Assembly: GCA_039804105.1 (NCBI GenBank)
Contig: JBDRZU010000001.1
Coordinates: 677,101 to 741,100, forward strand
DNA length: 64,000 nucleotides
From: a candidate division WOR-3 bacterium
GTDB lineage: Bacteria; Hydrothermota; 32-111
Direction: 5' to 3'
Shown here piece after piece: positions 53,972-64,000 of the stretch. Position numbers and translations under genes: made by a program. The notes below the pieces were generated by a model. That model ran no database searches, had not been told where the DNA came from, and saw nothing but the letters and a program-made list of their open reading frames with translations. Position 1 is the first letter of the stretch. Each line of letters starts with the position of its first letter.

Positions 53972-54589
53972 TTATTTTGTTAATCTGAAAGTTATAGGAT
54001 ATGTTACATAACATCTTATAGGTAAATCTCTCGTCATCGCAGGAGACCATTTCAACTGGTATGCTGCCTTAACTGCAGCCTCATCAAGTAATGGATGAAC
54101 GCTTTTTAAAACTTTTACCTGTGATACTGTTCCATCCTTTTCAACAACAAGTTCAAGAAATACTGTTCCTTCAATTCCAAGTTGTCTCGCCATCTGTGGA
54201 TATTCAGGATCTATTCTTTGAATCAACTGTGGTGCCTGTTCATATATTCTAAAGATTTCACCTTCATATTTTTCAATATTTAGATCCTCTGTTTCAAATG
54301 TTGTCTGAATATCTATATTTTTTGTTACCTCTGATTCTTTCGTTGTTTCAACAATCTTTTTTGGGAGTTGAGGTTTTGAGATTTCTTGAGGTTCATTTAT
54401 TTTCTGTATCTGATCAGGTAACTTCTCCATTACGACTACATCCTTTTTCTCCTTCATTTTGTAGGGATTCGTTTTCAGTTTTGGAATAAAAAGGAAAAGT
54501 ATTATGAAAAGTATAAGTGTGGTCAAAAGTGATGATTTCACGAATGTAGGATACTTTTCTTTCAAATCATTTCTAATAAATTTTTCCAT
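53972..54589 (-). CDS. tonB: energy transducer TonB
   Basis: N-terminal TM anchor, a Pro/Glu/Lys linker (EPQEISKPQLPKK), and a C-terminal TonB domain YPQMARQLGIEGTVFLELVVEKDGTVSQVKVLKS. Confidence 0.85.
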   Translation of the reverse strand: MEKFIRNDLKEKYPTFVKSSLLTTLILFIILFLFIPKLKTNPYKMKEKKDVVVMEKLPDQIQKINEPQEISKPQLPKKIVETTKESEVTKNIDIQTTFETEDLNIEKYEGEIFRIYEQAPQLIQRIDPEYPQMARQLGIEGTVFLELVVEKDGTVSQVKVLKSVHPLLDEAAVKAAYQLKWSPAMTRDLPIRCYVTYPITFRLTK

Positions 54590-54597
54590 ATGCTCTC

Positions 54598-55026
54598 CTA
54601 TTTGATCGCATTGACTTTCTTAGCACTTAAAGAAACATGAAGAGCGTTCGCTTTTATAAGTTGACCAAAAACATCGTTTGATATCCAATAAGGAGTATTC
54701 TTATCAGCCATTATCGAAACTATCAGATTTGGGTTAACTCTCTTTTTCTGTTCTATTATGTTTTTTATCTGTCCTATTGGAACGATTCTGTCATCTATGG
54801 ATACAACTCCCCTATCTCCATCGTAGCCAATCCAAACATGAGCAAGGTTTTTTGTTTCAATCTTTTTAGATGATAACGCCTGTGGAAGATCTATTCTTAA
54901 TCCCTGTTCAGTTCTGAACACTGTTGTCACCATAAAGAATATGAGAAGGAGAAAAACTATATCTGAAGTTGTTGATGTTGGAATCGAAGGTGATGTTTCT
55001 TCAACTTTTCCAAAATGTTTTTTCAT
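54598..55026 (-). CDS. exbD: biopolymer transporter ExbD/TolR
   Basis: SDIVFLLLIFFMVTT TM helix with a periplasmic domain; 142 aa. Confidence 0.85.
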   Translation of the reverse strand: MKKHFGKVEETSPSIPTSTTSDIVFLLLIFFMVTTVFRTEQGLRIDLPQALSSKKIETKNLAHVWIGYDGDRGVVSIDDRIVPIGQIKNIIEQKKRVNPNLIVSIMADKNTPYWISNDVFGQLIKANALHVSLSAKKVNAIK

Positions 55027-55035
55027 CTTTCCTCC

Positions 55036-55473
55036 TTACATCTCATCATCTTCTGCTGGAGATAGAGATATTTTCTCTTTCTTCTGTGCTTTTTCAAACG
55101 CTATTTTCAATTGGTCAAAAACTCTTATCATATAATCATATTTAGCAGATCTTGTTGGTATTATAGAAAATATCAAGGAATCTCCATTTGGTTGATTTAA
55201 AAGTTCCATCGCTTTATCAGAAACCGCTGTCCATTCGACCGGATCATTTTCTATTCTAACATCTCCAAACCTGTTTATTCTAACATGTACGATATTCTTT
55301 GATAAGACTGTGATCGTCTCTTTTGATTCTTCAGGTAACACTATTTGAAGCCCCATCTCAGTGTTAAAACTTGATGTCACAAGAAAGAATATGAGCATCA
55401 AAAAAGTGATATCACCCAAAGATGCTGTTGGAATATCAGGTTTTTGGAGTGTCTTTTTTCTTTTAAATAACAT
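55036..55473 (-). CDS. exbD: biopolymer transporter ExbD/TolR (second copy)
   Basis: GDITFLMLIFFLVTSSF TM helix; 145 aa. Confidence 0.85.
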   Translation of the reverse strand: MLFKRKKTLQKPDIPTASLGDITFLMLIFFLVTSSFNTEMGLQIVLPEESKETITVLSKNIVHVRINRFGDVRIENDPVEWTAVSDKAMELLNQPNGDSLIFSIIPTRSAKYDYMIRVFDQLKIAFEKAQKKEKISLSPAEDDEM

Positions 55474-55485
55474 ATTATCTCCTGA

Positions 55486-56112
55486 TTATGCTTCCTCTAT
55501 CTCCAAACTCATCAAAATTTCAACTATTTTGTTCGATGCATCTTCAAGTGTTCTCGAATAACCGTTCACAACTGTCTGAAAATATGTGAATGCTGCAGAA
55601 ACTGGTATTGCGATCACAAGACCTGTAAGGGTTGTTATCAGTGCCTCTGAAATACCACTTGCAACGAGTTTTGGTTCAACAGTTCCCGCAAGTGCTATAG
55701 CATCGAATGCGTTTATCATTCCTGAAACCGTTCCCAAGAATCCAAGCATTGGAGCAAGTGTTATAACTGCTGATAAGAATGGCATTCCTCTATCAAGGAA
55801 AGCGAGTTCTGTCACACCTGCTTTTGCTATTGCATCCTCAATAGCACCTTTATCCTTTCCAACATATTGAAACTCTGTCAAAGCTGCCTCAATAACTCTT
55901 GCAAAAGGACTTGGATTTTTTGCACAATATTGTATTGCAGCTTCTATTCCCTCTTTCTCTATTTTATTCTTTAACTCTTCAACAAACTTCTTTGGATTCT
56001 TGTTCATTATAAGAAGAGTTACGAATCTTTCAATGATAAAAACAACTCCAATGATAGCGCATGCGAGTAGTGGCCACATTGTCCATCCACCTCTCTGGAA
56101 TAAATCTAACAC
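55486..56112 (-). CDS. exbB: MotA/TolQ/ExbB proton channel protein
   Basis: WPLLACAIIGVVFIIER and APMLGFLGTVSGMINAF...ISEALITTLTGL. GTG start with AGGAGG upstream. Confidence 0.9.
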   Translation of the reverse strand: MLDLFQRGGWTMWPLLACAIIGVVFIIERFVTLLIMNKNPKKFVEELKNKIEKEGIEAAIQYCAKNPSPFARVIEAALTEFQYVGKDKGAIEDAIAKAGVTELAFLDRGMPFLSAVITLAPMLGFLGTVSGMINAFDAIALAGTVEPKLVASGISEALITTLTGLVIAIPVSAAFTYFQTVVNGYSRTLEDASNKIVEILMSLEIEEA

Positions 56113-56186: not shown

Positions 56187-56537
56187 TTATCTTGTTGACC
56201 AAATATAGTATATCAAAGAAGCGAGTATTGCAAAAAGTCCGGCAAGAAGGATCATCAGTCCTTCAAGTGATCCAACCTGCATCGTCTTTGCTATCTGGGG
56301 CAAAAGATCGTAGGGGTTTGATCTTGCTAGTGCTGGGAAATAAACTGTAAGTTTGATTATATGTACCACAGCGCCAACAAGCACCAGAATACTACCTAAA
56401 ATTTCAAGAACCCATATTGATGGTTTTCTTATTATTTTCAACAACCTTTTCAAAATTAAAGCTGAGATGAATAGAGATATTGAAAAAAGTATTATCCCTA
56501 TGGCAAGCATTATTTCCGCTGGGAATAAAACTTTCAT
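56187..56537 (-). CDS. small polytopic membrane protein, unknown function
   Basis: 116 aa with 3-4 hydrophobic helices and a 4-nt overlap with the upstream gene. Confidence 0.45.
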   Translation of the reverse strand: MKVLFPAEIMLAIGIILFSISLFISALILKRLLKIIRKPSIWVLEILGSILVLVGAVVHIIKLTVYFPALARSNPYDLLPQIAKTMQVGSLEGLMILLAGLFAILASLIYYIWSTR

Positions 56538-56923
56538 TTTGCCCCTCCTTTGTGAGGTTTAACAACATTGTAGAATTTTAAACTTCCGATAAGGGAAAGG
56601 ACTCCTGAAAGGAAAAAGAAAAAGTATCCGATCCATGTCTGGATATCTGTCATTTTCAAATTTCCAACTATGATCAAACTGTATGCCTGAATCATCGCAT
56701 AAACTATTATTCCAGTAGGTGATATCATTATAAACTGCCAGTCAGTTTTCTTATGCAAAACCTTTTCATATCTTTGTGCAATTATGCCAACAAGAAAAAG
56801 AGAAAACCAAAGAAGAACAGCACCTAAAATTGTAAGAACACTTGATAACATTTTTGAATCTGTGACATATTTGGGGATTCCGGTTTGAGTTATAGAAACA
56901 AGTTCAAAAAATTTTAACACCAT
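56534..56923 (-). CDS. small polytopic membrane protein, unknown function
   Basis: 129 aa with 3-4 hydrophobic helices. Confidence 0.45.
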   Translation of the reverse strand: MVLKFFELVSITQTGIPKYVTDSKMLSSVLTILGAVLLWFSLFLVGIIAQRYEKVLHKKTDWQFIMISPTGIIVYAMIQAYSLIIVGNLKMTDIQTWIGYFFFFLSGVLSLIGSLKFYNVVKPHKGGAK

Positions 56924-56933
56924 ATCTCCTCCA

Positions 56934-57611
56934 TTATTTCAAACTTTGTAAAATTTTTTCAACCATCTTCTGTGATTGGCTTGGACCTATGATCATCGAT
57001 GATGCCTTCGAAAATCTTTTCAAAAATTCATCGAGTTTATTCTGATTGAGATTTTTTATATCAAGTTTCATCTCTGTAATAATATTGTTGATTATGTCAT
57101 CAGCAAAATCTTCAAGGAACTCTGCTGCAATTTTTTTAATCTTGTTAAAAGATTGATCATCTATTTTTAAAGTTGGAACACTCTCCTCTTTTTCGACAGT
57201 TTTTTCTTTTACATCTTCTTTTACCGGTTGTGCAGGTTTGATCACTATCTTTTTCTTATCTTTTAAAGCGACTTTTACTTTCCCTTCCTTTTCCTCTTCA
57301 ACAACCTCTTTTTCTGCGATTTCTGCAAAATCTATACTATCAACTGAAACATTTTTGTTAACTATGATTCCAAAAAAAGAATTGTTTTTTTGAAAAAATA
57401 CTATTTTTTTATTTTCATTCTGAAATTCAATTTTTTCAACTCTCGAAACATTTGCAGCATCAAGAGATTGTTTCAATACAACTATCACCTGTTTTACAAC
57501 ATCATCAGTATATCCAACGATTCCGGTCTTTGAAATCGTTTCGTTTTCATTTGAGAACACGAAATCAGCGTTGAATTTTTCCCTTATTTTCTCAATATTG
57601 TACCCCATCAC
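56934..57611 (-). CDS. Roadblock/LC7 (MglB)-like N-domain protein with charged linker and helical C-domain
   Basis: The N-terminal 100 aa have a Robl-like alternating pattern (GIVGYTDDV..., IEFQNENKKIVFFQKNNSFFGIIV). The C-terminus resembles that of the neighbouring paralogue. Confidence 0.35.
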   Translation of the reverse strand: MMGYNIEKIREKFNADFVFSNENETISKTGIVGYTDDVVKQVIVVLKQSLDAANVSRVEKIEFQNENKKIVFFQKNNSFFGIIVNKNVSVDSIDFAEIAEKEVVEEEKEGKVKVALKDKKKIVIKPAQPVKEDVKEKTVEKEESVPTLKIDDQSFNKIKKIAAEFLEDFADDIINNIITEMKLDIKNLNQNKLDEFLKRFSKASSMIIGPSQSQKMVEKILQSLK

Positions 57612-57618
57612 TTCCCCC

Positions 57619-58389
57619 TTACCTTTTACTCAATTTTTCAATAACATTCTGAACCATCTTTTTTGCTTCAGATGCTCCATAAACCTCAACCGCTTTTTTA
57701 CAAACTCCATCGATCAAAACTTTTGTTGTTCTCTGGATATCATCTCTACTGATCTCAACAGGAACTACATCCTTTACATCAATTTTATCTTTGATATCGA
57801 GTGCTTTTTCAAGAATATCAACACTTGAAAGGTTTTCTTTAATGAAATTGTTCCAGATCTTTCGATCTCCACCTTGTGAAAACTCATCCACAAGATAGTT
57901 CAACTGTAAAACTTTTGAAATTAAAAGTTTCCTTTCAATTTCACCTAATCTGTTGACTTCCTGTGTTTGAAATTCCTGTTTGGGTGAATTAAAGGTTTGC
58001 TCAACAACTGGTTCTTTTATAGGTTCACTTTCAACTATCTTTGGCTCCTCAACTATTTTTGTAGTTTCAAAAATATTTTTGAATTCATTGTAAAACTTAT
58101 CGATTTCAACTTCCCCATTGATTTTAAAAAGTAGAAACTCACTTTTCTGAGAAATTAGAATAAGATTGTTACCATCAACTTTCATAAAGGAAATCAAAGG
58201 ATAGTTCATCTGAAACTTTTTAAATATAACATCACCAGCAGAACCAAGAAATGCTCCAATATCACCAAGATTTGCTGGTTGTTCTCCGAATTTTTCAAGT
58301 ACCGTCCCATCCTCTTTGTTCAACCTCATAGCCCCAAATATGGGAACAAGGTTCTTCAATTTTTCAACTATTTCAGAAAGTCCCATCAC
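57619..58389 (-). CDS. Roadblock/LC7 (MglB)-like N-domain protein with linker and helical C-domain
   Basis: LSEIVEKLKNLVPIFGAMRLNKEDGTVLEKFGE...ISFMKVDGNNLILISQKSEFLLFKI fits the Robl/MglB pattern. Confidence 0.45.
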   Translation of the reverse strand: MMGLSEIVEKLKNLVPIFGAMRLNKEDGTVLEKFGEQPANLGDIGAFLGSAGDVIFKKFQMNYPLISFMKVDGNNLILISQKSEFLLFKINGEVEIDKFYNEFKNIFETTKIVEEPKIVESEPIKEPVVEQTFNSPKQEFQTQEVNRLGEIERKLLISKVLQLNYLVDEFSQGGDRKIWNNFIKENLSSVDILEKALDIKDKIDVKDVVPVEISRDDIQRTTKVLIDGVCKKAVEVYGASEAKKMVQNVIEKLSKR

Positions 58390-59266
58390 TCACCCCTTCT
58401 TTATTTAAAAGTTCCCTGTATTTTTTCTTTGCTATCATACCACCAAGTTCTTCGATACCTTTTTCAAGGACCTTTTCAAAAAGAATTTTTTTCATATTTC
58501 TAATCTTCGCTTCATCCAAAAATCTGTCAGCACTTTCATCTATTTCAATCGTTTCATCTTTAAATTTTAAAAGACCTCCAATAGTTTCGAATCCAGAATT
58601 TGTTAAAACGTCTACTATGAAATGGAACCAATCCTTTGTGTTTGTGTTTTTGACTGCAAAAGTATCAAGGATATTGTTTAAACTTTGTTTGAATTCGTTC
58701 CTGATCTTTTCGACAAACGATTTATCAAAGATGAGTCCTTTTGAGATTAAATACTCGAGAGATTTATACGATTCAAGCAGAGGGAGATTGCTTTCCTTGA
58801 TTATTGTTCTTATATTCTTTTTACCATCAACTATTCTTATTATAACCCAATCAGTTTTTCTTAAACTTATATTATCCCCAAGCCCTTCAGCCCTTTTTTC
58901 AAGAACAGCATCAAATGATGGTAACCTTTTGAGTATATCATCGAATTCCATCCTTCTTTTTTCTATCTGATCCATCAAGGATGATGTATTCGACTGTGTA
59001 ATTGATACTTCATCTGTTGTTTCCCCATTTCTATACATAACAGTCCCAATCTTCTCAATAGAAAGGTTGTACAATGCCTCTTCGCCTGTAAAAGAGTTGT
59101 AAACAGCATGCTTTGGTAAACCTTTTTCAAAAAATATTTTTCCCTCTTTATTATCAATCTGAAAAATCAAAACACCTGTTCTCTCCCTCGATGATATCAA
59201 ACTTATAAATTCAACTGGACTGAAGATTTCAAGATTCGCTTTTAAATCTACCTTTTCTTTATCCAT
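58373..59266 (-). CDS. DUF4388/PATAN-like domain protein
   Basis: LEIFSPVEFISLISSRERTGVLIFQIDNKEGKIFFEKGLPKHAVYN matches the DUF4388 pattern. Soluble, 297 aa. Confidence 0.55.
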   Translation of the reverse strand: MDKEKVDLKANLEIFSPVEFISLISSRERTGVLIFQIDNKEGKIFFEKGLPKHAVYNSFTGEEALYNLSIEKIGTVMYRNGETTDEVSITQSNTSSLMDQIEKRRMEFDDILKRLPSFDAVLEKRAEGLGDNISLRKTDWVIIRIVDGKKNIRTIIKESNLPLLESYKSLEYLISKGLIFDKSFVEKIRNEFKQSLNNILDTFAVKNTNTKDWFHFIVDVLTNSGFETIGGLLKFKDETIEIDESADRFLDEAKIRNMKKILFEKVLEKGIEELGGMIAKKKYRELLNKEGVSDGTF

Positions 59267-59994
59267 TCCTCATCCTTATATTTTTGAATTAAATTCTGCA
59301 ACTTTTCATCTTCAAAATCTAATTCAACTTCTTCCCATTCAAAATCTAACTCCCTAAAAAAAATTTTATAAAACACAGAAGATATATTTTCGATATTATA
59401 AGTTAAACCTGTTAAATTTTCAATATTGTTTGAAAAATTTTTTCCATAAATTTTTTCCTGCGGAACAATACTCTCTTTTACAAGAATCGTTCCCTGTTGT
59501 AAAAAATTTGTTTCTGAGAATGTTTGTGCACTTCCAACAATCTTTTCTCCTTTGTAACTGATCTCATAAACCGATTGAGATCCAAAACAGTTTGCGATAA
59601 AGTTTTCCTTTTTTTCTCCCTGTGTTAGTTTCGCATCTATTTTTAACTCTTTAAAACCTTTGATAAAAATTTCTGCTATCCTTTTATACCTGTCTAAAAG
59701 TCCATAATTTTTTCCAAAATGTTCAATGTTTCCAACAAAGGAATATGTCAGATCACCACTATGAAGAACTGCCCTTCCACCCGTTATCCTTCGTGTGATA
59801 TCAATCTTTTCCTTTATAACATAATCATAATCGATACCAACATTGTACCTCTGATTGTATCCTATCGTTATTGAAGGTTTTGAAAATGAATAGAATCTAA
59901 AAAATATTGTATCAATATTTTTATAAGCCCATTCATCTATAGCCATATTTGTATAAACATCAAAAGCAGAGTAATTCAAAAAATAACCTTTCAT
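59248..59994 (-). CDS. lipoate/biotin protein ligase catalytic-fold protein (LplA/LipM-like, single domain)
   Basis: ITRRITGGRAVLHSGDLTYSF and GEKIVGSAQTF (catalytic Lys context). 248 aa with no LplA C-terminal domain. Confidence 0.65.
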   Translation of the reverse strand: MKGYFLNYSAFDVYTNMAIDEWAYKNIDTIFFRFYSFSKPSITIGYNQRYNVGIDYDYVIKEKIDITRRITGGRAVLHSGDLTYSFVGNIEHFGKNYGLLDRYKRIAEIFIKGFKELKIDAKLTQGEKKENFIANCFGSQSVYEISYKGEKIVGSAQTFSETNFLQQGTILVKESIVPQEKIYGKNFSNNIENLTGLTYNIENISSVFYKIFFRELDFEWEEVELDFEDEKLQNLIQKYKDEEWIKKR

Positions 59995-60608
59995 TTTAAA
60001 ATTTTAAGCCAATCAGATAAAAGGAAATAGATTCTTCCAATAAGAAGTGAAATACGTGCCATCACAGTATAACCAAAAGATGCACCGAATGCAACCATGA
60101 TAAAGGTTATTCCTATTTTTGATCCCCATTTTAAAACACCTTTCTGTTCTTTTGAAAAATAGAAATAGATGAGTGTTGTTAAAACTCCAAAAATTATCAA
60201 AAAATTGTTAAAAGTTTCGAAATTGAAACCTGTTATCGTAACAAGTGTTGCTTGAACCTGTGGAAGTATAAATCCCTGTATCGCACCTGTAACACCAAGT
60301 CCAGCTCCAATACCAACTGTAAAAGCGATAGACCATCTTGAAAGCCAAGCAATATTAGGGAACCATCTAGTTAACATGATTATTCCAAAAAATGCAGGAA
60401 TCAACAGAATAAACTCTTTGTTTTTTATCATCGGATCAAGAAGCATTGGTTGTATAACATAAGCCCAAGTATAGATAAGCCAATATCCAGCTGTTATCCC
60501 AACATAGAGATGCTCTGCAAATTTATAGAAAGGGTTATCCTTATACAGAAAAGAATATATAAAAAGGGTCAAACCAGCAGCTATCCATATTCCAATGGTC
60601 GTTCCCAT
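59991..60608 (-). CDS. polytopic membrane protein, unknown family (paralogue of 63402..>64000)
   Basis: 205 aa with about 6 TM helices. Shares LYKDNPFYKFAE, ITFIMVAFGA.FGYT.MAR.SL.IGRI.FLLSDWL with the other copy. Confidence 0.55.
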   Translation of the reverse strand: MGTTIGIWIAAGLTLFIYSFLYKDNPFYKFAEHLYVGITAGYWLIYTWAYVIQPMLLDPMIKNKEFILLIPAFFGIIMLTRWFPNIAWLSRWSIAFTVGIGAGLGVTGAIQGFILPQVQATLVTITGFNFETFNNFLIIFGVLTTLIYFYFSKEQKGVLKWGSKIGITFIMVAFGASFGYTVMARISLLIGRIYFLLSDWLKILK

Positions 60609-61444
60609 TATTTTCCTCCTTCTTTACTTTTTGTTCTCTTCTCTATGAAATACGCTATATTTCCTAAAATGATGAAAAGTATTATAACAAGATGAGAATA
60701 TGATTGCGATGCCATTCCAGCAACAGCAATATCAGGTTTACCAACAAGCACTTCATATTCAGCAGCTCCCTTCATTCCACCGACAAGTCCAACGATCTGG
60801 CCTGACTGATAGAAATAGTAAGCATCTGGAGCAGAAACAGCATTTAAAGCGAGTGCTATTTTCTGTTTGAATCTTCCTCCAGCATATTCGATCCAGACAA
60901 GATATGTTGCTCCTGCCTCAAGACCAACAAGAAGTGCTATATCGTTATAGTTATGCACATTCTTCATCATCGGGAAAGAATCGAGTGGAACATTTCGATA
61001 ATCAACTTTGAAATAATCTCTTATTTCCTTTCCAATTCCAACAATCTGTGCAACATATCCGGGTCTATAACCAAGGTTAATATAATCGACTCCATAAACA
61101 GCACCCATCTCCTTAGCAATCTTTTCAAGACCCATAGTTCCAAGGGGTGCTCCCAACTGCCATTGGACTATTAGTATAGGTTTCAGTTTATTTCTAAAAA
61201 GTTGTCTTAAAAGTGCTTCTAAAAATGGTTGTTGTTCAGGCATCGATGCTGCATCATAATCAATAGATATCATCACATTGCTACCTTCTGGTAAATTTTC
61301 GATATAATCATAAACATCCTTAACAGGTTTTGATGGAACAACTGGAAATTTTGGTTTCAAAAGTAAAGGAAGAATAACAACAATTGCAATGAATATATAT
61401 ATGAATCTTCTATCGACCTTTAAAAGTTTTAAAAAGATATTCAT
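60608..61444 (-). CDS. bitopic protein (N- and C-terminal TM helices flanking a ~220-aa soluble domain), unknown family
   Basis: 278 aa. I recognised no motif. Confidence 0.5.
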   Translation of the reverse strand: MNIFLKLLKVDRRFIYIFIAIVVILPLLLKPKFPVVPSKPVKDVYDYIENLPEGSNVMISIDYDAASMPEQQPFLEALLRQLFRNKLKPILIVQWQLGAPLGTMGLEKIAKEMGAVYGVDYINLGYRPGYVAQIVGIGKEIRDYFKVDYRNVPLDSFPMMKNVHNYNDIALLVGLEAGATYLVWIEYAGGRFKQKIALALNAVSAPDAYYFYQSGQIVGLVGGMKGAAEYEVLVGKPDIAVAGMASQSYSHLVIILFIILGNIAYFIEKRTKSKEGGK

Positions 61445-61453
61445 AATGACTCC

Positions 61454-62092
61454 TTATGAAAGATAACTTCTTTCAATACCTAAAATTATTCTTATTGAAA
61501 CACCCAAAGCACCGAGAGAAATTCCAAGTCCAATTCCTCTTTTTGCAGCCATCTGCGGAACCTGCATGATCCATTCCGTGAACTTTGGAAGATAAGGTGA
61601 AATCTGTTCTCCCAGAGGAACTCTTCCAAGCATAACTATTATCGCTGTTATCAGAAGAAGTGTAGCATCAAAATTTCTCGCTCTAAAAGCTCTATATGCA
61701 GCTGATGCTATAAAGAATGCAAGAAGAGAAAACATAGTTGCCTGAAGTGGAACTATAAAATAGTTGTATATGTATGTAAAATATGACTTATCATCAAACG
61801 CTGTTCCAAACCTGACAGTTTCAACTATTCCAACAACAACTGTAGCAACAAAACCAAAAATCAACACAAGAGAAAAAAACCAGTTCTCATCTTTTCTTTT
61901 GACTTTTCTAAAATGCATCCCTATCAAAGAATCAACTCCAAGAAGCATTGTAAAACCTGCTATTATCGAATACCAGTTCAAAGAAATTTTTTCTATGTCA
62001 CCAAAAGGTTTATGTGGAATAAAAAAAGAAACTATCATAATCATACCAACAAGAAAGGTTATAAAAATCGGTATACCTTTTCCTTTTAACAT
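61454..62092 (-). CDS. polytopic membrane protein, unknown family
   Basis: 212 aa with about 6 TM helices. I recognised no motif. Confidence 0.5.
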   Translation of the reverse strand: MLKGKGIPIFITFLVGMIMIVSFFIPHKPFGDIEKISLNWYSIIAGFTMLLGVDSLIGMHFRKVKRKDENWFFSLVLIFGFVATVVVGIVETVRFGTAFDDKSYFTYIYNYFIVPLQATMFSLLAFFIASAAYRAFRARNFDATLLLITAIIVMLGRVPLGEQISPYLPKFTEWIMQVPQMAAKRGIGLGISLGALGVSIRIILGIERSYLS

Positions 62093-62103
62093 TTATCCTC
62101 CTA

Positions 62104-63393
62104 CTAAACCTGTAACAAGTTTATCAACCAATCGAATAGATTTTTTATTATTTCAATCCTCAACCCATATCCTAAAACTGAAAAAACAAAACCTATTATG
62201 ATCAAAAACATTATAAAAACTTTTAAAAGATCTTCTGCTGCTATTGAACCAAGCATCATCGGCTCTTTCTGCAAATAAACTGATGCAGCCATCATCTCTT
62301 CACCTATAAGAGTGTAATCACAAGCTGCTACAAAGAATGGTAACTGTGCTGTTTCAGTTGTTCCAGATATCTGAATCGCTCCTATCGAATGCCCGGTTTC
62401 AGCAAGGATCAAAGATTCCGCAAAGAAAAGACCCTGTAAAAATACAGCACCAGGTTTTTCTCTCATCATCATACCATCAACTCCTGCAGCGTATCCAAAT
62501 TGATCCTGAGTTATATACATTATATCGTTTTTATTGTATAGATCTGGTCTCCCAGCCTCAGTAAATGCCTCCTTCACAACTTCCTGTGCTGTTGTCATAA
62601 CAACTGGATCATATGATGGAACAAGAATCCTCGTTTCATAATCAGCAACCTTTTTCGCTACTCTTCCAAGTATCGTTAGACCTGCTATAGTGGGTATATC
62701 TGTGACATATCCTATTCCAAGAATATACATTATAGGTTTTCCCATTTCAGTACTTCTTCCAACTGCCTCTTCAACAGCATCAAGTCCGTTTATTTTTCTT
62801 ATATAAAGATCTTTTCCACTCTTTGCAAGATTCAAATAGTATAAGAAAACAAAAGCGATTATGATCAAAGAAACCAGAACAGGTATCCTAGAAAGGTTAA
62901 ACCATGATGATTTTGAAAATATTGCTTCTGTTTCTCCTGTTATGTAAAAAGTATCGTTTCCAAAAATATATACACCATTTTTCGAATATTCTGATCCGTT
63001 TGAAATCAATTTGTTTAAAAACTCTTCGTTGATCATATTTTTACTTAAAATTCCTGTATAGTAATAATTTGTATTATCTTTTACCCTTGAAGGTTCCTCT
63101 TCAGAACTCACATCTCTCACCTGCATTGAAGATACAAGAAGATCAGTTGCAACAACAATAACATTGTTTGAATCATCCCTTCTTAAAACTGTCAAAAACC
63201 AGTTTCCCAAAGTATCGGGGAAACACCAGTTGATCTGGATTCCTCCACCACCATCGTTTGGTATATCGTTCCCTGTAAGTTTAAAATCCAAAAAAGGGTT
63301 TTGATTTTCTAAAAAGATTAAACTATCACTTTCCTGAGAAAAGAGTAAAATTGAAAAAACTAAAAAAATCAAAAGAAGGGTTTTTTTTAACAC
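62104..63393 (-). CDS. membrane protein with secreted N-domain and large C-terminal domain, unknown family
   Basis: 429 aa: signal peptide, an extracytoplasmic domain of about 150 aa, a TM helix, a conserved-looking globular region (GKPIMYILGIGYVTDIPTIAGLTILGRVA...), and a terminal TM helix. Confidence 0.5.
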   Translation of the reverse strand: MLKKTLLLIFLVFSILLFSQESDSLIFLENQNPFLDFKLTGNDIPNDGGGGIQINWCFPDTLGNWFLTVLRRDDSNNVIVVATDLLVSSMQVRDVSSEEEPSRVKDNTNYYYTGILSKNMINEEFLNKLISNGSEYSKNGVYIFGNDTFYITGETEAIFSKSSWFNLSRIPVLVSLIIIAFVFLYYLNLAKSGKDLYIRKINGLDAVEEAVGRSTEMGKPIMYILGIGYVTDIPTIAGLTILGRVAKKVADYETRILVPSYDPVVMTTAQEVVKEAFTEAGRPDLYNKNDIMYITQDQFGYAAGVDGMMMREKPGAVFLQGLFFAESLILAETGHSIGAIQISGTTETAQLPFFVAACDYTLIGEEMMAASVYLQKEPMMLGSIAAEDLLKVFIMFLIIIGFVFSVLGYGLRIEIIKNLFDWLINLLQV

Positions 63394-63401
63394 CTCTCCT
63401 C

Positions 63402-64000
63402 CTATTTAATAATTCCAAGCCAATCGGACAGAAGAAACTGTATTCTACCGATGAAAAGGGAAACTCTCGCCATAATAGTGTATCCGAACGCTGCACCAAA
63501 TGCAACCATTATGAATGTGATTCCAGCTTTCGAAACCTTTCCAATAAAACCTTTATGTTCGAGTGAAAAGAAAAAATAAACAAGAGTTGAAATAACTCCA
63601 ACAACTATGATCAAACTTCCAATATCAAGTTTTAATGGCATTGTGGCATAAATCTGTTTAAAAAGAAATTCAAAAGAGGATGGAACGGAAAGCCCTGTTC
63701 CAGCACCAACAACAAAAGCTATTGGTATTCTTGAAAGATATGCAACATTTTTGAAAAATCTTGAAAACATCAAAAGACCTAAAACAAGTGGTATCAGAAC
63801 AAGAAAATTTTTATCATAAACAAGTGGATTGAAAACTTTTGTGATTATCGTGTTATGCCAGTAAACCGATATTCCATAACCTATAGAGATTCCAACAAGA
63901 AGGTATTCTGCAAACTTATAGAAAGGATTATCTTTATATAAAAATGAATAGATTGCAAGAGTGAGTAATGCAGCTATCCATACCCAGAAATTCGTTGATA
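63402..64000 (-). CDS. polytopic membrane protein, paralogue of 59991..60608 (5' end just beyond window)
   Basis: The tracked ORF begins at an internal Met. The frame stays open to the window edge and reads STNFWVWIAALLTLAIYSFLYKDNPFYKFAEYLLVG..., colinear with the N-terminus of the paralogue. Confidence 0.6.
   Translation of the reverse strand, partial: STNFWVWIAALLTLAIYSFLYKDNPFYKFAEYLLVGISIGYGISVYWHNTIITKVFNPLVYDKNFLVLIPLVLGLLMFSRFFKNVAYLSRIPIAFVVGAGTGLSVPSSFEFLFKQIYATMPLKLDIGSLIIVVGVISTLVYFFFSLEHKGFIGKVSKAGITFIMVAFGAAFGYTIMARVSLFIGRIQFLLSDWLGIIK

Follow-up and report, generated by a model that had tools for sequence, protein, structure and literature searches.

Which genes belong together at the end of the 64,000-nucleotide (nt) stretch analysed here (the window; candidate division WOR-3 bacterium, contig JBDRZU010000001.1, positions 677,101 to 741,100), where five closely packed minus-strand genes encode membrane proteins, and what might their products do? 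A sequence-only reading had described these genes as a block A1-B-C-D-A2, in which two copies of one protein bracket three unique ones. Comparison with related genomes revealed that the five genes are one complete B-C-D-A cassette together with the final gene of another, tandem copy (Table 1). The products would be parts of one undescribed multi-subunit envelope complex.

The sequence-only reading had placed the five genes at most 11 nt apart, and the coordinates of the open reading frames (ORFs) agree (spacings of 8, 11 and 9 nt and one 1-nt overlap). It had also described the two A proteins as colinear but diverged, with shared blocks. Alignment showed 53% identical amino acids (aa; 106/199, BLASTP E=1e-68), and the blocks YSFLYKDNPFYKFAE and GITFIMVAFGA.FGYT.MAR are both present and form the best-conserved segments of the A family. 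A divergence of this size indicates true paralogy, neither chance nor an assembly repeat. An assembly duplication of A is ruled out by this divergence together with the retention of both paralogue types in other genomes.

For the comparison, B homologues were aligned and one genome per GTDB species was scanned. At least 572 stretches encode a relative, and the best 80 loci were analysed by reading their gene order with tblastn searches using the window proteins. The genes co-occur across related genomes: B, C, D and A stand together in fixed order in 80/80 loci from at least eight candidate phyla. Wherever the contig permits, B-C-D-A lies on one strand, with 82 complete cassettes, not a single violation of the order and no opposite-strand match to a cassette gene in these loci. 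The median spacing between tblastn matches within loci is 24 nt. The loci come from WOR-3, TA06, Stahlbacteria, Eisenbacteria, Fermentibacteria/Aegiribacteria, Zixibacteria, Edwardsbacteria, one Cloacimonadota genome and two bins labelled Ignavibacteriales. A single complete cassette was found in 55 loci, two in 12 and three in one (13/80 with two or more); several more loci contain part of another copy, truncated where the locus ends, and Zixibacteria typically carry three cassettes.

The two closest genomes are TA06 bacterium 32_111 (L055; 81-96% identical) and the WOR-3 metagenome-assembled genome GCA_037481815.1 (L081; D 99% identical). Both show the order B'(401 aa)-C'(225)-D'(288)-A1(201), followed by B(429)-C(212)-D(278)-A2(205). 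As B', C' and D' precede A1 in both genomes, A1 closes the upstream cassette and brackets nothing. The proposed bracket is thus not a unit of its own, and an A-B-C-D-A order occurs only where whole cassettes are tandemly repeated. That a duplicated A subunit nevertheless flanks three unique subunits of one apparatus is suggested by the literal gene order in the window and by A1 and A2 being diverged paralogues, but is very improbable given that A1 has its own B', C' and D' in near-identical genomes and that the loci with a single B-C-D-A have nothing A-like upstream of B. In 69 of the 82 cassettes all four proteins agree in which of the two window-type cassettes they resemble more closely. The duplication is old and involved whole sets.

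In one WOR-3 chromosome (CP070680.1; L166, 8116-11116) the called C and A have only 130 and 95 aa, next to B and D of full length, which may reflect either decay of the cassette or frameshift errors of the assembly. Many apparently long ORFs for B, A or D in high-GC loci are artefacts of upstream ORF extension.

Table 1. Genes of the cassette region and its downstream neighbours (positions in the window; TM, transmembrane helices)
Feature	Position	Strand	Remarks
A1	63402 to beyond 64000	minus	199 codons visible, full protein 201 aa in near-identical L081; ~6 TM, polytopic; last gene of upstream second cassette B'-C'-D'-A1, cut by window end
B	62104-63393	minus	429 aa, GTG start
C	61454-62092	minus	212 aa, membrane protein
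D	60608-61444	minus	278 aa, two TM
A2	59991-60608	minus	205 aa, ~6 TM; last gene of complete cassette
lplA-like (lipoate-protein ligase-like)	59248-59994	minus	catalytic domain only, Pfam LplA-B_cat E=4.9e-27; overlaps A2 by 4 nt
DUF4388 protein, two soluble proteins (256, 225 aa), two small membrane proteins (129, 116 aa)	56187-59266	minus	
ExbB, ExbD, ExbD, TonB	53972-56112	minus	Pfam annotations of near-identical L081; commonest recurring module beside the cassette across phyla

Hydropathy and the positive-inside rule predict about six TM helices for A and for C, two for D and a signal peptide plus two for B, in keeping with the earlier view that all the products are membrane proteins. None of them had seemed assignable to a family. 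This stands for A, C and D but not for B, which matches Pfam DUF6754 (PF20539) with 372.8 bits (cut-off 27; E=9e-112) over residues 161-408 and model positions 2-249 of 257. The match was also found in B' of L081 (E=5.4e-117) and in 20/20 aligned homologues, and the B family counts more than 7953 homologues. DUF6754 is a catalogue entry without a function, and a literature search found no paper mentioning DUF6754 or PF20539. Pfam covers only B in this way, its partners A, C and D having no model.

B is laid out as a signal peptide, an Fn3-like ectodomain with an insertion, a TM helix (~167-191), the alpha/beta DUF6754 domain and a second TM helix (~385-410); with this topology the DUF6754 domain (~200 aa) probably faces the cytoplasm. 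The family profile of the ectodomain matched the Fn3-like protein 3mpc in the PDB (E=4.8e-4), and the top Foldseek matches were all Fn3 domains or monobodies (probability ~1.0, target TM-score 0.5-0.6), while the Pfam fn3 model matched only 1/20 B members. The ectodomain is variable among lineages. An 816-aa B homologue (L079, 737-3187) has, as judged by eye, a repeat-rich PQQ/WD-type beta-propeller-like region in place of Fn3. The DUF6754 part is extremely conserved (motifs DQFGYAAGxDG, AESLILAETG..GAIQIxGT and QLPFFxAxCDYTLIGEE), with ~60-70% identity of the cytoplasmic domain over most aligned lineages, which points to a core function. The AlphaFold2 model of B (20 sequences, mean pLDDT 65.6) showed alternating helices and strands at residues 204-300.

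The AlphaFold2 model of D is much better defined (118 sequences; pLDDT 89, pTM 0.82). It consists of a helix at residues 12-29, a six-stranded Rossmann-like alpha/beta domain (~200-210 aa) and a long helix at 239-274; the second TM helix carries the conserved residues Q247, H251 and N262. The positive-inside rule, together with the fusions and A variants described below, places the domain in the periplasm, as far as such predictions go. Searches with D revealed no sequence relative in Pfam (single window protein), NCBIfam or the PDB. A Foldseek search of the model against the PDB gave generic Rossmann-like folds only, namely GT-B C-domains, UDP-GlcNAc 2-epimerases, TtuA and the NG domain of the SRP GTPase (best E 1e-3, TM-score 0.3-0.4). 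D was considered as a GldG/GIFT-like, vWA-like or binding-protein-like domain, and these candidates were dropped on the same generic matches. Two loci (L008, 3678-5606; L014, 1144-3066; one labelled WOR-3 and one Stahlbacteria) contain an insertion of ~130 aa, rich in E, K, A and Y and coiled-coil-like, within the Rossmann-like domain of D; these ORFs also seem extended at the N-terminus, which is an artefact of ORF calling.

The A family comprises more than 7478 homologues (2680 representatives after clustering at 50%); all are annotated as hypothetical and none contains a Pfam domain. For both A and C, searches of Pfam, NCBIfam and the PDB gave no relative, even when the alignments were searched member by member; weak sub-threshold TMD0_ABC matches are scattered in 12/41 C homologues. 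No internal (3+3) repeats were detected in either protein. C has six predicted TM helices with both termini inside and a conserved C-terminal GIER motif, and conserved cytoplasmic loops are found in both proteins (YKDNPFYKFAE in A, RAFRAR in C). For A, charge distribution, D-A fusions and N-terminally extended variants all suggest that the N-terminus lies outside. A distant paralogy of A and C, or of B and D, was ruled out by hhalign (A vs C probability 0.1%); on this comparison B, C, D and A are four unrelated families.

A scan of long A-family proteins for fused domains detected no Pfam domains, but two of them, P0510 and P0521 (598 aa), proved to be natural D-A fusions. Alignment of their D portion with D gives E=8e-44, and the ~60-aa linker that joins the D and A parts contains an additional TM helix. 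These fusions argue for direct contact between D and A. Other A variants have an N-terminal anchor and a Ser/Thr/Ala-rich segment, and P0429, P0530 and similar A-family proteins (475-633 aa) carry a charged helical insertion of 270-400 aa without a Pfam match in the loop between TM4 and TM5.

Taken together, the invariant order, the same-type sets, the tight spacing and the D-A fusions point to a complex of four proteins. The sequence-only reading had likewise proposed a multi-subunit envelope complex, and this part of it is supported by the fixed order, the fusions and the lack of any known family, whereas the five-gene architecture with a duplicated subunit is not. A mere adjacency of four unrelated membrane proteins could be imagined in a compact genome in which most window genes lie on one strand; it is, however, scarcely credible with an order invariant over at least eight phylum-level lineages, duplications of whole cassettes and fusions of D to A.

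To which processes the complex might belong was addressed through its neighbours. All neighbour ORFs in 84 genome loci were clustered without preselection, and the resulting ranking by number of loci was U597 (16), ExbB/ExbD (15), U373 (14), GcvP (9), U110 (9), TonB (9) and the DUF4388 block (8). At 1418-4673 of L081, just past the point that corresponds to the window end, U110 (110 aa), U597 (597 aa) and U373 (373 aa) precede the cassettes, and GcvP2 is also located upstream. In Fermentibacteria/Aegiribacteria one operon contains GcvH-P1-P2, U110, U597, U373, B-C-D-A, a 933-aa TonB-dependent receptor and ExbB-ExbD-ExbD-TonB. In Zixibacteria, U597, a 268-aa protein, U373 and ExbB-ExbD-TonB are divergent from three cassettes, and in L084 ExbB-ExbD-TonB lies immediately upstream of two cassettes. 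An lplA-like gene follows the last A in five genome loci and several metagenome loci, which gives the block, in several lineages, the glycine-cleavage genes on one side and the GcvH-lipoylating ligase on the other. Some lineages have contexts of their own, with lspA coupled to A, an ABC operon of the MacB type or housekeeping genes.

U597 is a GlmL/MutL-family ASKHA ATPase (Pfam MutL, PF13941, 428 bits, E=5e-128) that stays below the NCBIfam equivalog cut-offs (GlmL 228.6 vs 475; ornithine Or-4 217.9 vs 600), and no B12 mutase genes are located near it. U373 has no family model; it is 52-58% identical between phyla, shares the motifs FVQGIFGIGGE, TEGFG and NGATQIRAGV and shows weak resemblance to a barrel-sandwich hybrid at its N-terminus and to KOW at its C-terminus. 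For U373 and U597 no sequence relative of solved structure was found. At least 569 relatives of U373 were found in metagenomes, and U373 adjoins the cassette in 24/80 metagenome loci. As an exclusive partner U373 was rejected, because about as many metagenome loci with at least 3 kb of downstream flank lack a cassette as have one. In cassette-free loci (L115, L140, L160, L097, L110, L134, L135) U373 is followed by a protein of 277-295 aa, AccA and then Era or DUF4388. The 277-295-aa protein has a weak PorV-like match, and this second conserved neighbourhood again ties U373 to DUF4388. Searches of A-D, U597 and U373 with the PADLOC models for anti-phage defence gave no match.

The reading we prefer, tentatively, is that the cassette encodes an uptake transporter of a new type, which would work behind TonB-dependent import. 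C (six TM, N-terminus inside) and A (~6 TM, N-terminus outside) would form the membrane core of an inner-membrane complex. The D domain and the variable B ectodomain (Fn3, or a beta-propeller in one lineage) would face the periplasm, and the DUF6754 domain of B would lie in the cytoplasm beside the conserved cytoplasmic loops of A and C. A solute that reaches the periplasm through a TonB-dependent outer-membrane receptor would be captured or gated by D and the B ectodomain and moved across the inner membrane by the complex. The cytoplasmic domain of B might couple to cytoplasmic partners, in many genomes U597 and U373, which in many lineages could be such partners or downstream enzymes. Tandem paralogous cassettes with different B ectodomains would then serve different substrates. 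Speculatively, the operons shared with glycine-cleavage genes and lplA nominate glycine, glycine-yielding compounds or lipoate as substrates. A more specific proposal, which we consider rather unlikely, is the membrane core of a trans-envelope uptake system confined to deep lineages of the FCB group, in which a TonB-dependent receptor and ExbBD-TonB supply the substrate and the actin-fold (GlmL-like) ATPase and U373, not an ABC ATPase, energise transport or process the substrate, possibly feeding glycine cleavage.

Several findings weigh against a transporter. None of the cassette proteins resembles any transporter family in sequence or fold; A, C and D are negative against Pfam, NCBIfam and PDB profiles, and A and C lack internal repeats. 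About three quarters of the loci have neither ExbBD-TonB nor an ATPase nearby, other contexts vary, and U373 is not exclusive to the cassette. No riboswitch was detected near the cassettes in seven loci. The best-conserved part of the system, the cytoplasmic alpha/beta domain, resembles an enzyme or a module for binding nucleotides or partners more than it does a permease, and its conservation is the main fact that a transporter explains poorly. The model of this domain is itself poor at residues 300-387 (pLDDT 30-40). A transporter for B12, an idea raised by the GlmL-like ATPase and the TonB system, was rejected, as the seven loci contain no cobalamin riboswitch and the HxxG-like motif of DUF6754 lacks conservation, N or Y standing in place of the H. 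A thiamine pyrophosphate (TPP) riboswitch (60.5 bits) was found in L084 (13538-13637), located 3' of the second cassette and ahead of the thiamine-biosynthesis genes ThiD2/TMP-TENI and ThiC; it does not control the cassette.

The enzyme-like features leave some room for an envelope-biogenesis or export machine that moves or modifies a lipid-linked or a lipoprotein/polysaccharide substrate, with the D and B domains being catalytic or carrier-binding. Many invariant acidic and polar residues of DUF6754 and D are enzyme-like, and the best fold matches of D are GT-B glycosyltransferase C-domains and UDP-GlcNAc 2-epimerases; these matches, however, are weak and generic, and the D domain is predicted to lie in the periplasm, a compartment without nucleotide sugars. 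In two Hydrothermia-like genomes A and lspA are translationally coupled, and one of these genomes has glycosyltransferases further downstream; a LolCDE/MacB-like operon lies upstream in Eisenbacteria-like loci. Unlike ExbBD-TonB and the ATPase, which recur across phyla, such neighbours are lineage-specific, and tandem paralogous cassettes better match a diversification of substrates than a housekeeping machine. We regard this explanation as doubtful.

The repeated linkage to ExbB-ExbD-TonB in four to five phyla could also mean that the complex is an ion-conducting or energy-transducing partner of this system, or a signalling module, in which the B ectodomain senses a periplasmic cue and force or a signal is transmitted. 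Polar residues in the second TM helix of D (Q247, H251, N262) and conserved Arg and Glu residues near the TM helices of A and C would be in line with this, as would the WOR-3 subgroup, in which DUF4388 (PATAN-type) and genes for small membrane proteins stand ahead of ExbBD and are apparently co-transcribed with the cassette. Yet the proteins do not resemble MotA/ExbB, ExbD, GldL/M or any stator, most cassettes do not adjoin ExbBD, and ExbBD-TonB has a perfect consensus promoter of its own in the window. Such a role is accordingly judged improbable.

How far a transporter of this kind would differ from described ones can be seen from a comparison with known systems. The sequence-only reading had seen no ATPase, ABC, MFS, RND or Sec-type motifs, and the Pfam and NCBIfam scans confirmed this, with no model match of A-D to ABC ATPase or ABC membrane domains. 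Hidden Markov models of MFS, RND, Sec, TRAP, TTT and other transporters gave nothing above threshold, either for the four proteins or for the alignments of A, B and C searched member by member. BtuCD-F and FhuBCD are examples of inner-membrane transporters of TonB-dependent uptake pathways. Like these, the cassette lies beside a TonB-dependent receptor and ExbB-ExbD-TonB in several lineages, is multi-subunit and has, according to the model of D, a periplasmic alpha/beta domain that could bind a ligand. Unlike these, it lacks an ABC ATPase and an ABC membrane domain, has an extra conserved cytoplasmic domain, and has in D a single Rossmann-like lobe on two TM helices instead of a free two-lobe binding protein.

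GldF/GldG-type ABC-2 systems contain a doubly anchored periplasmic GIFT-domain protein, and D resembles GldG in its order of TM helix, periplasmic alpha/beta domain and TM helix and in standing beside ~6-TM membrane proteins of ~210 aa. The cassette differs in having no ABC_transp_aux, ABC2 or ABC ATPase: Pfam detected no GIFT (ABC_transp_aux) or ABC2 domain, and GldG/IFT52 is not among the 50 Foldseek matches listed for D. TRAP (DctPQM) and TTT (TctABC) systems are multi-subunit secondary transporters. The cassette shares with them several unrelated membrane subunits, a periplasmic domain and the lack of an ATPase within the cassette, but there is no sequence match, the subunit sizes and TM numbers differ, and its candidate binding domain is tethered to the membrane. 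As in Rnf/Nqr, subunits of ~200 aa with six TM helices occur together with a bitopic subunit that has a periplasmic domain. The A-type and E-type subunits of Rnf/Nqr are homologous to each other, whereas A and C of the cassette are not, and Pfam found no Rnf/Nqr or FMN_bind domains or redox motifs in A-D. Nor did Pfam find a MotA_ExbB or ExbD domain in A-D; the genuine downstream ExbB and ExbD match strongly in a similar scan.

By this comparison the system fits no known kind, although A, C or DUF6754 may yet turn out, once their structures are solved, to have the fold of a known transporter or enzyme. Databases name the proteins only 'hypothetical' or 'DUF6754/Fn3 domain-containing', and metagenome-assembled genomes with one to three copies of the cassette number in the thousands and span at least eight candidate phyla of the FCB group. 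Should the complex prove to be a transporter, its architecture for inner-membrane passage would be new, and a gap in the reconstructed metabolism of these uncultured groups would be closed; should it prove to be an enzyme or a motor partner of TonB systems, it would represent new envelope biology. For annotators, B-C-D-A provides a signature of four families with corrected unit boundaries.

Within the window, the genes from 64000 to 56187 overlap or sit at most 11 nt apart, and no terminator-like site was found on the minus strand over this range; the genes of the DUF4388 block are thus probably co-transcribed with the cassette. The sequence-only reading had asked whether DUF4388/Roadblock genes always lie downstream. 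They do not: the DUF4388 block follows the cassette in only 8/80 loci, all from the WOR-3/TA06/Stahlbacteria subgroup. The two genes after DUF4388 (56934-58389; 256 and 225 aa) have no Pfam or NCBIfam match, so that the 'Roadblock' label was not confirmed, and the 256-aa protein has no sequence relative in the PDB. A sigma-70 promoter with a perfect 12/12 consensus (TTGACA-16-TATAAT) lies at 56183-56156 on the minus strand, in the 74-nt gap before ExbB, and a strong hairpin with a T-run at 53947-53920 on the same strand forms a terminator directly after TonB. With this promoter and terminator, ExbB-ExbD-ExbD-TonB looks like a transcription unit of its own inside the longer string of genes.

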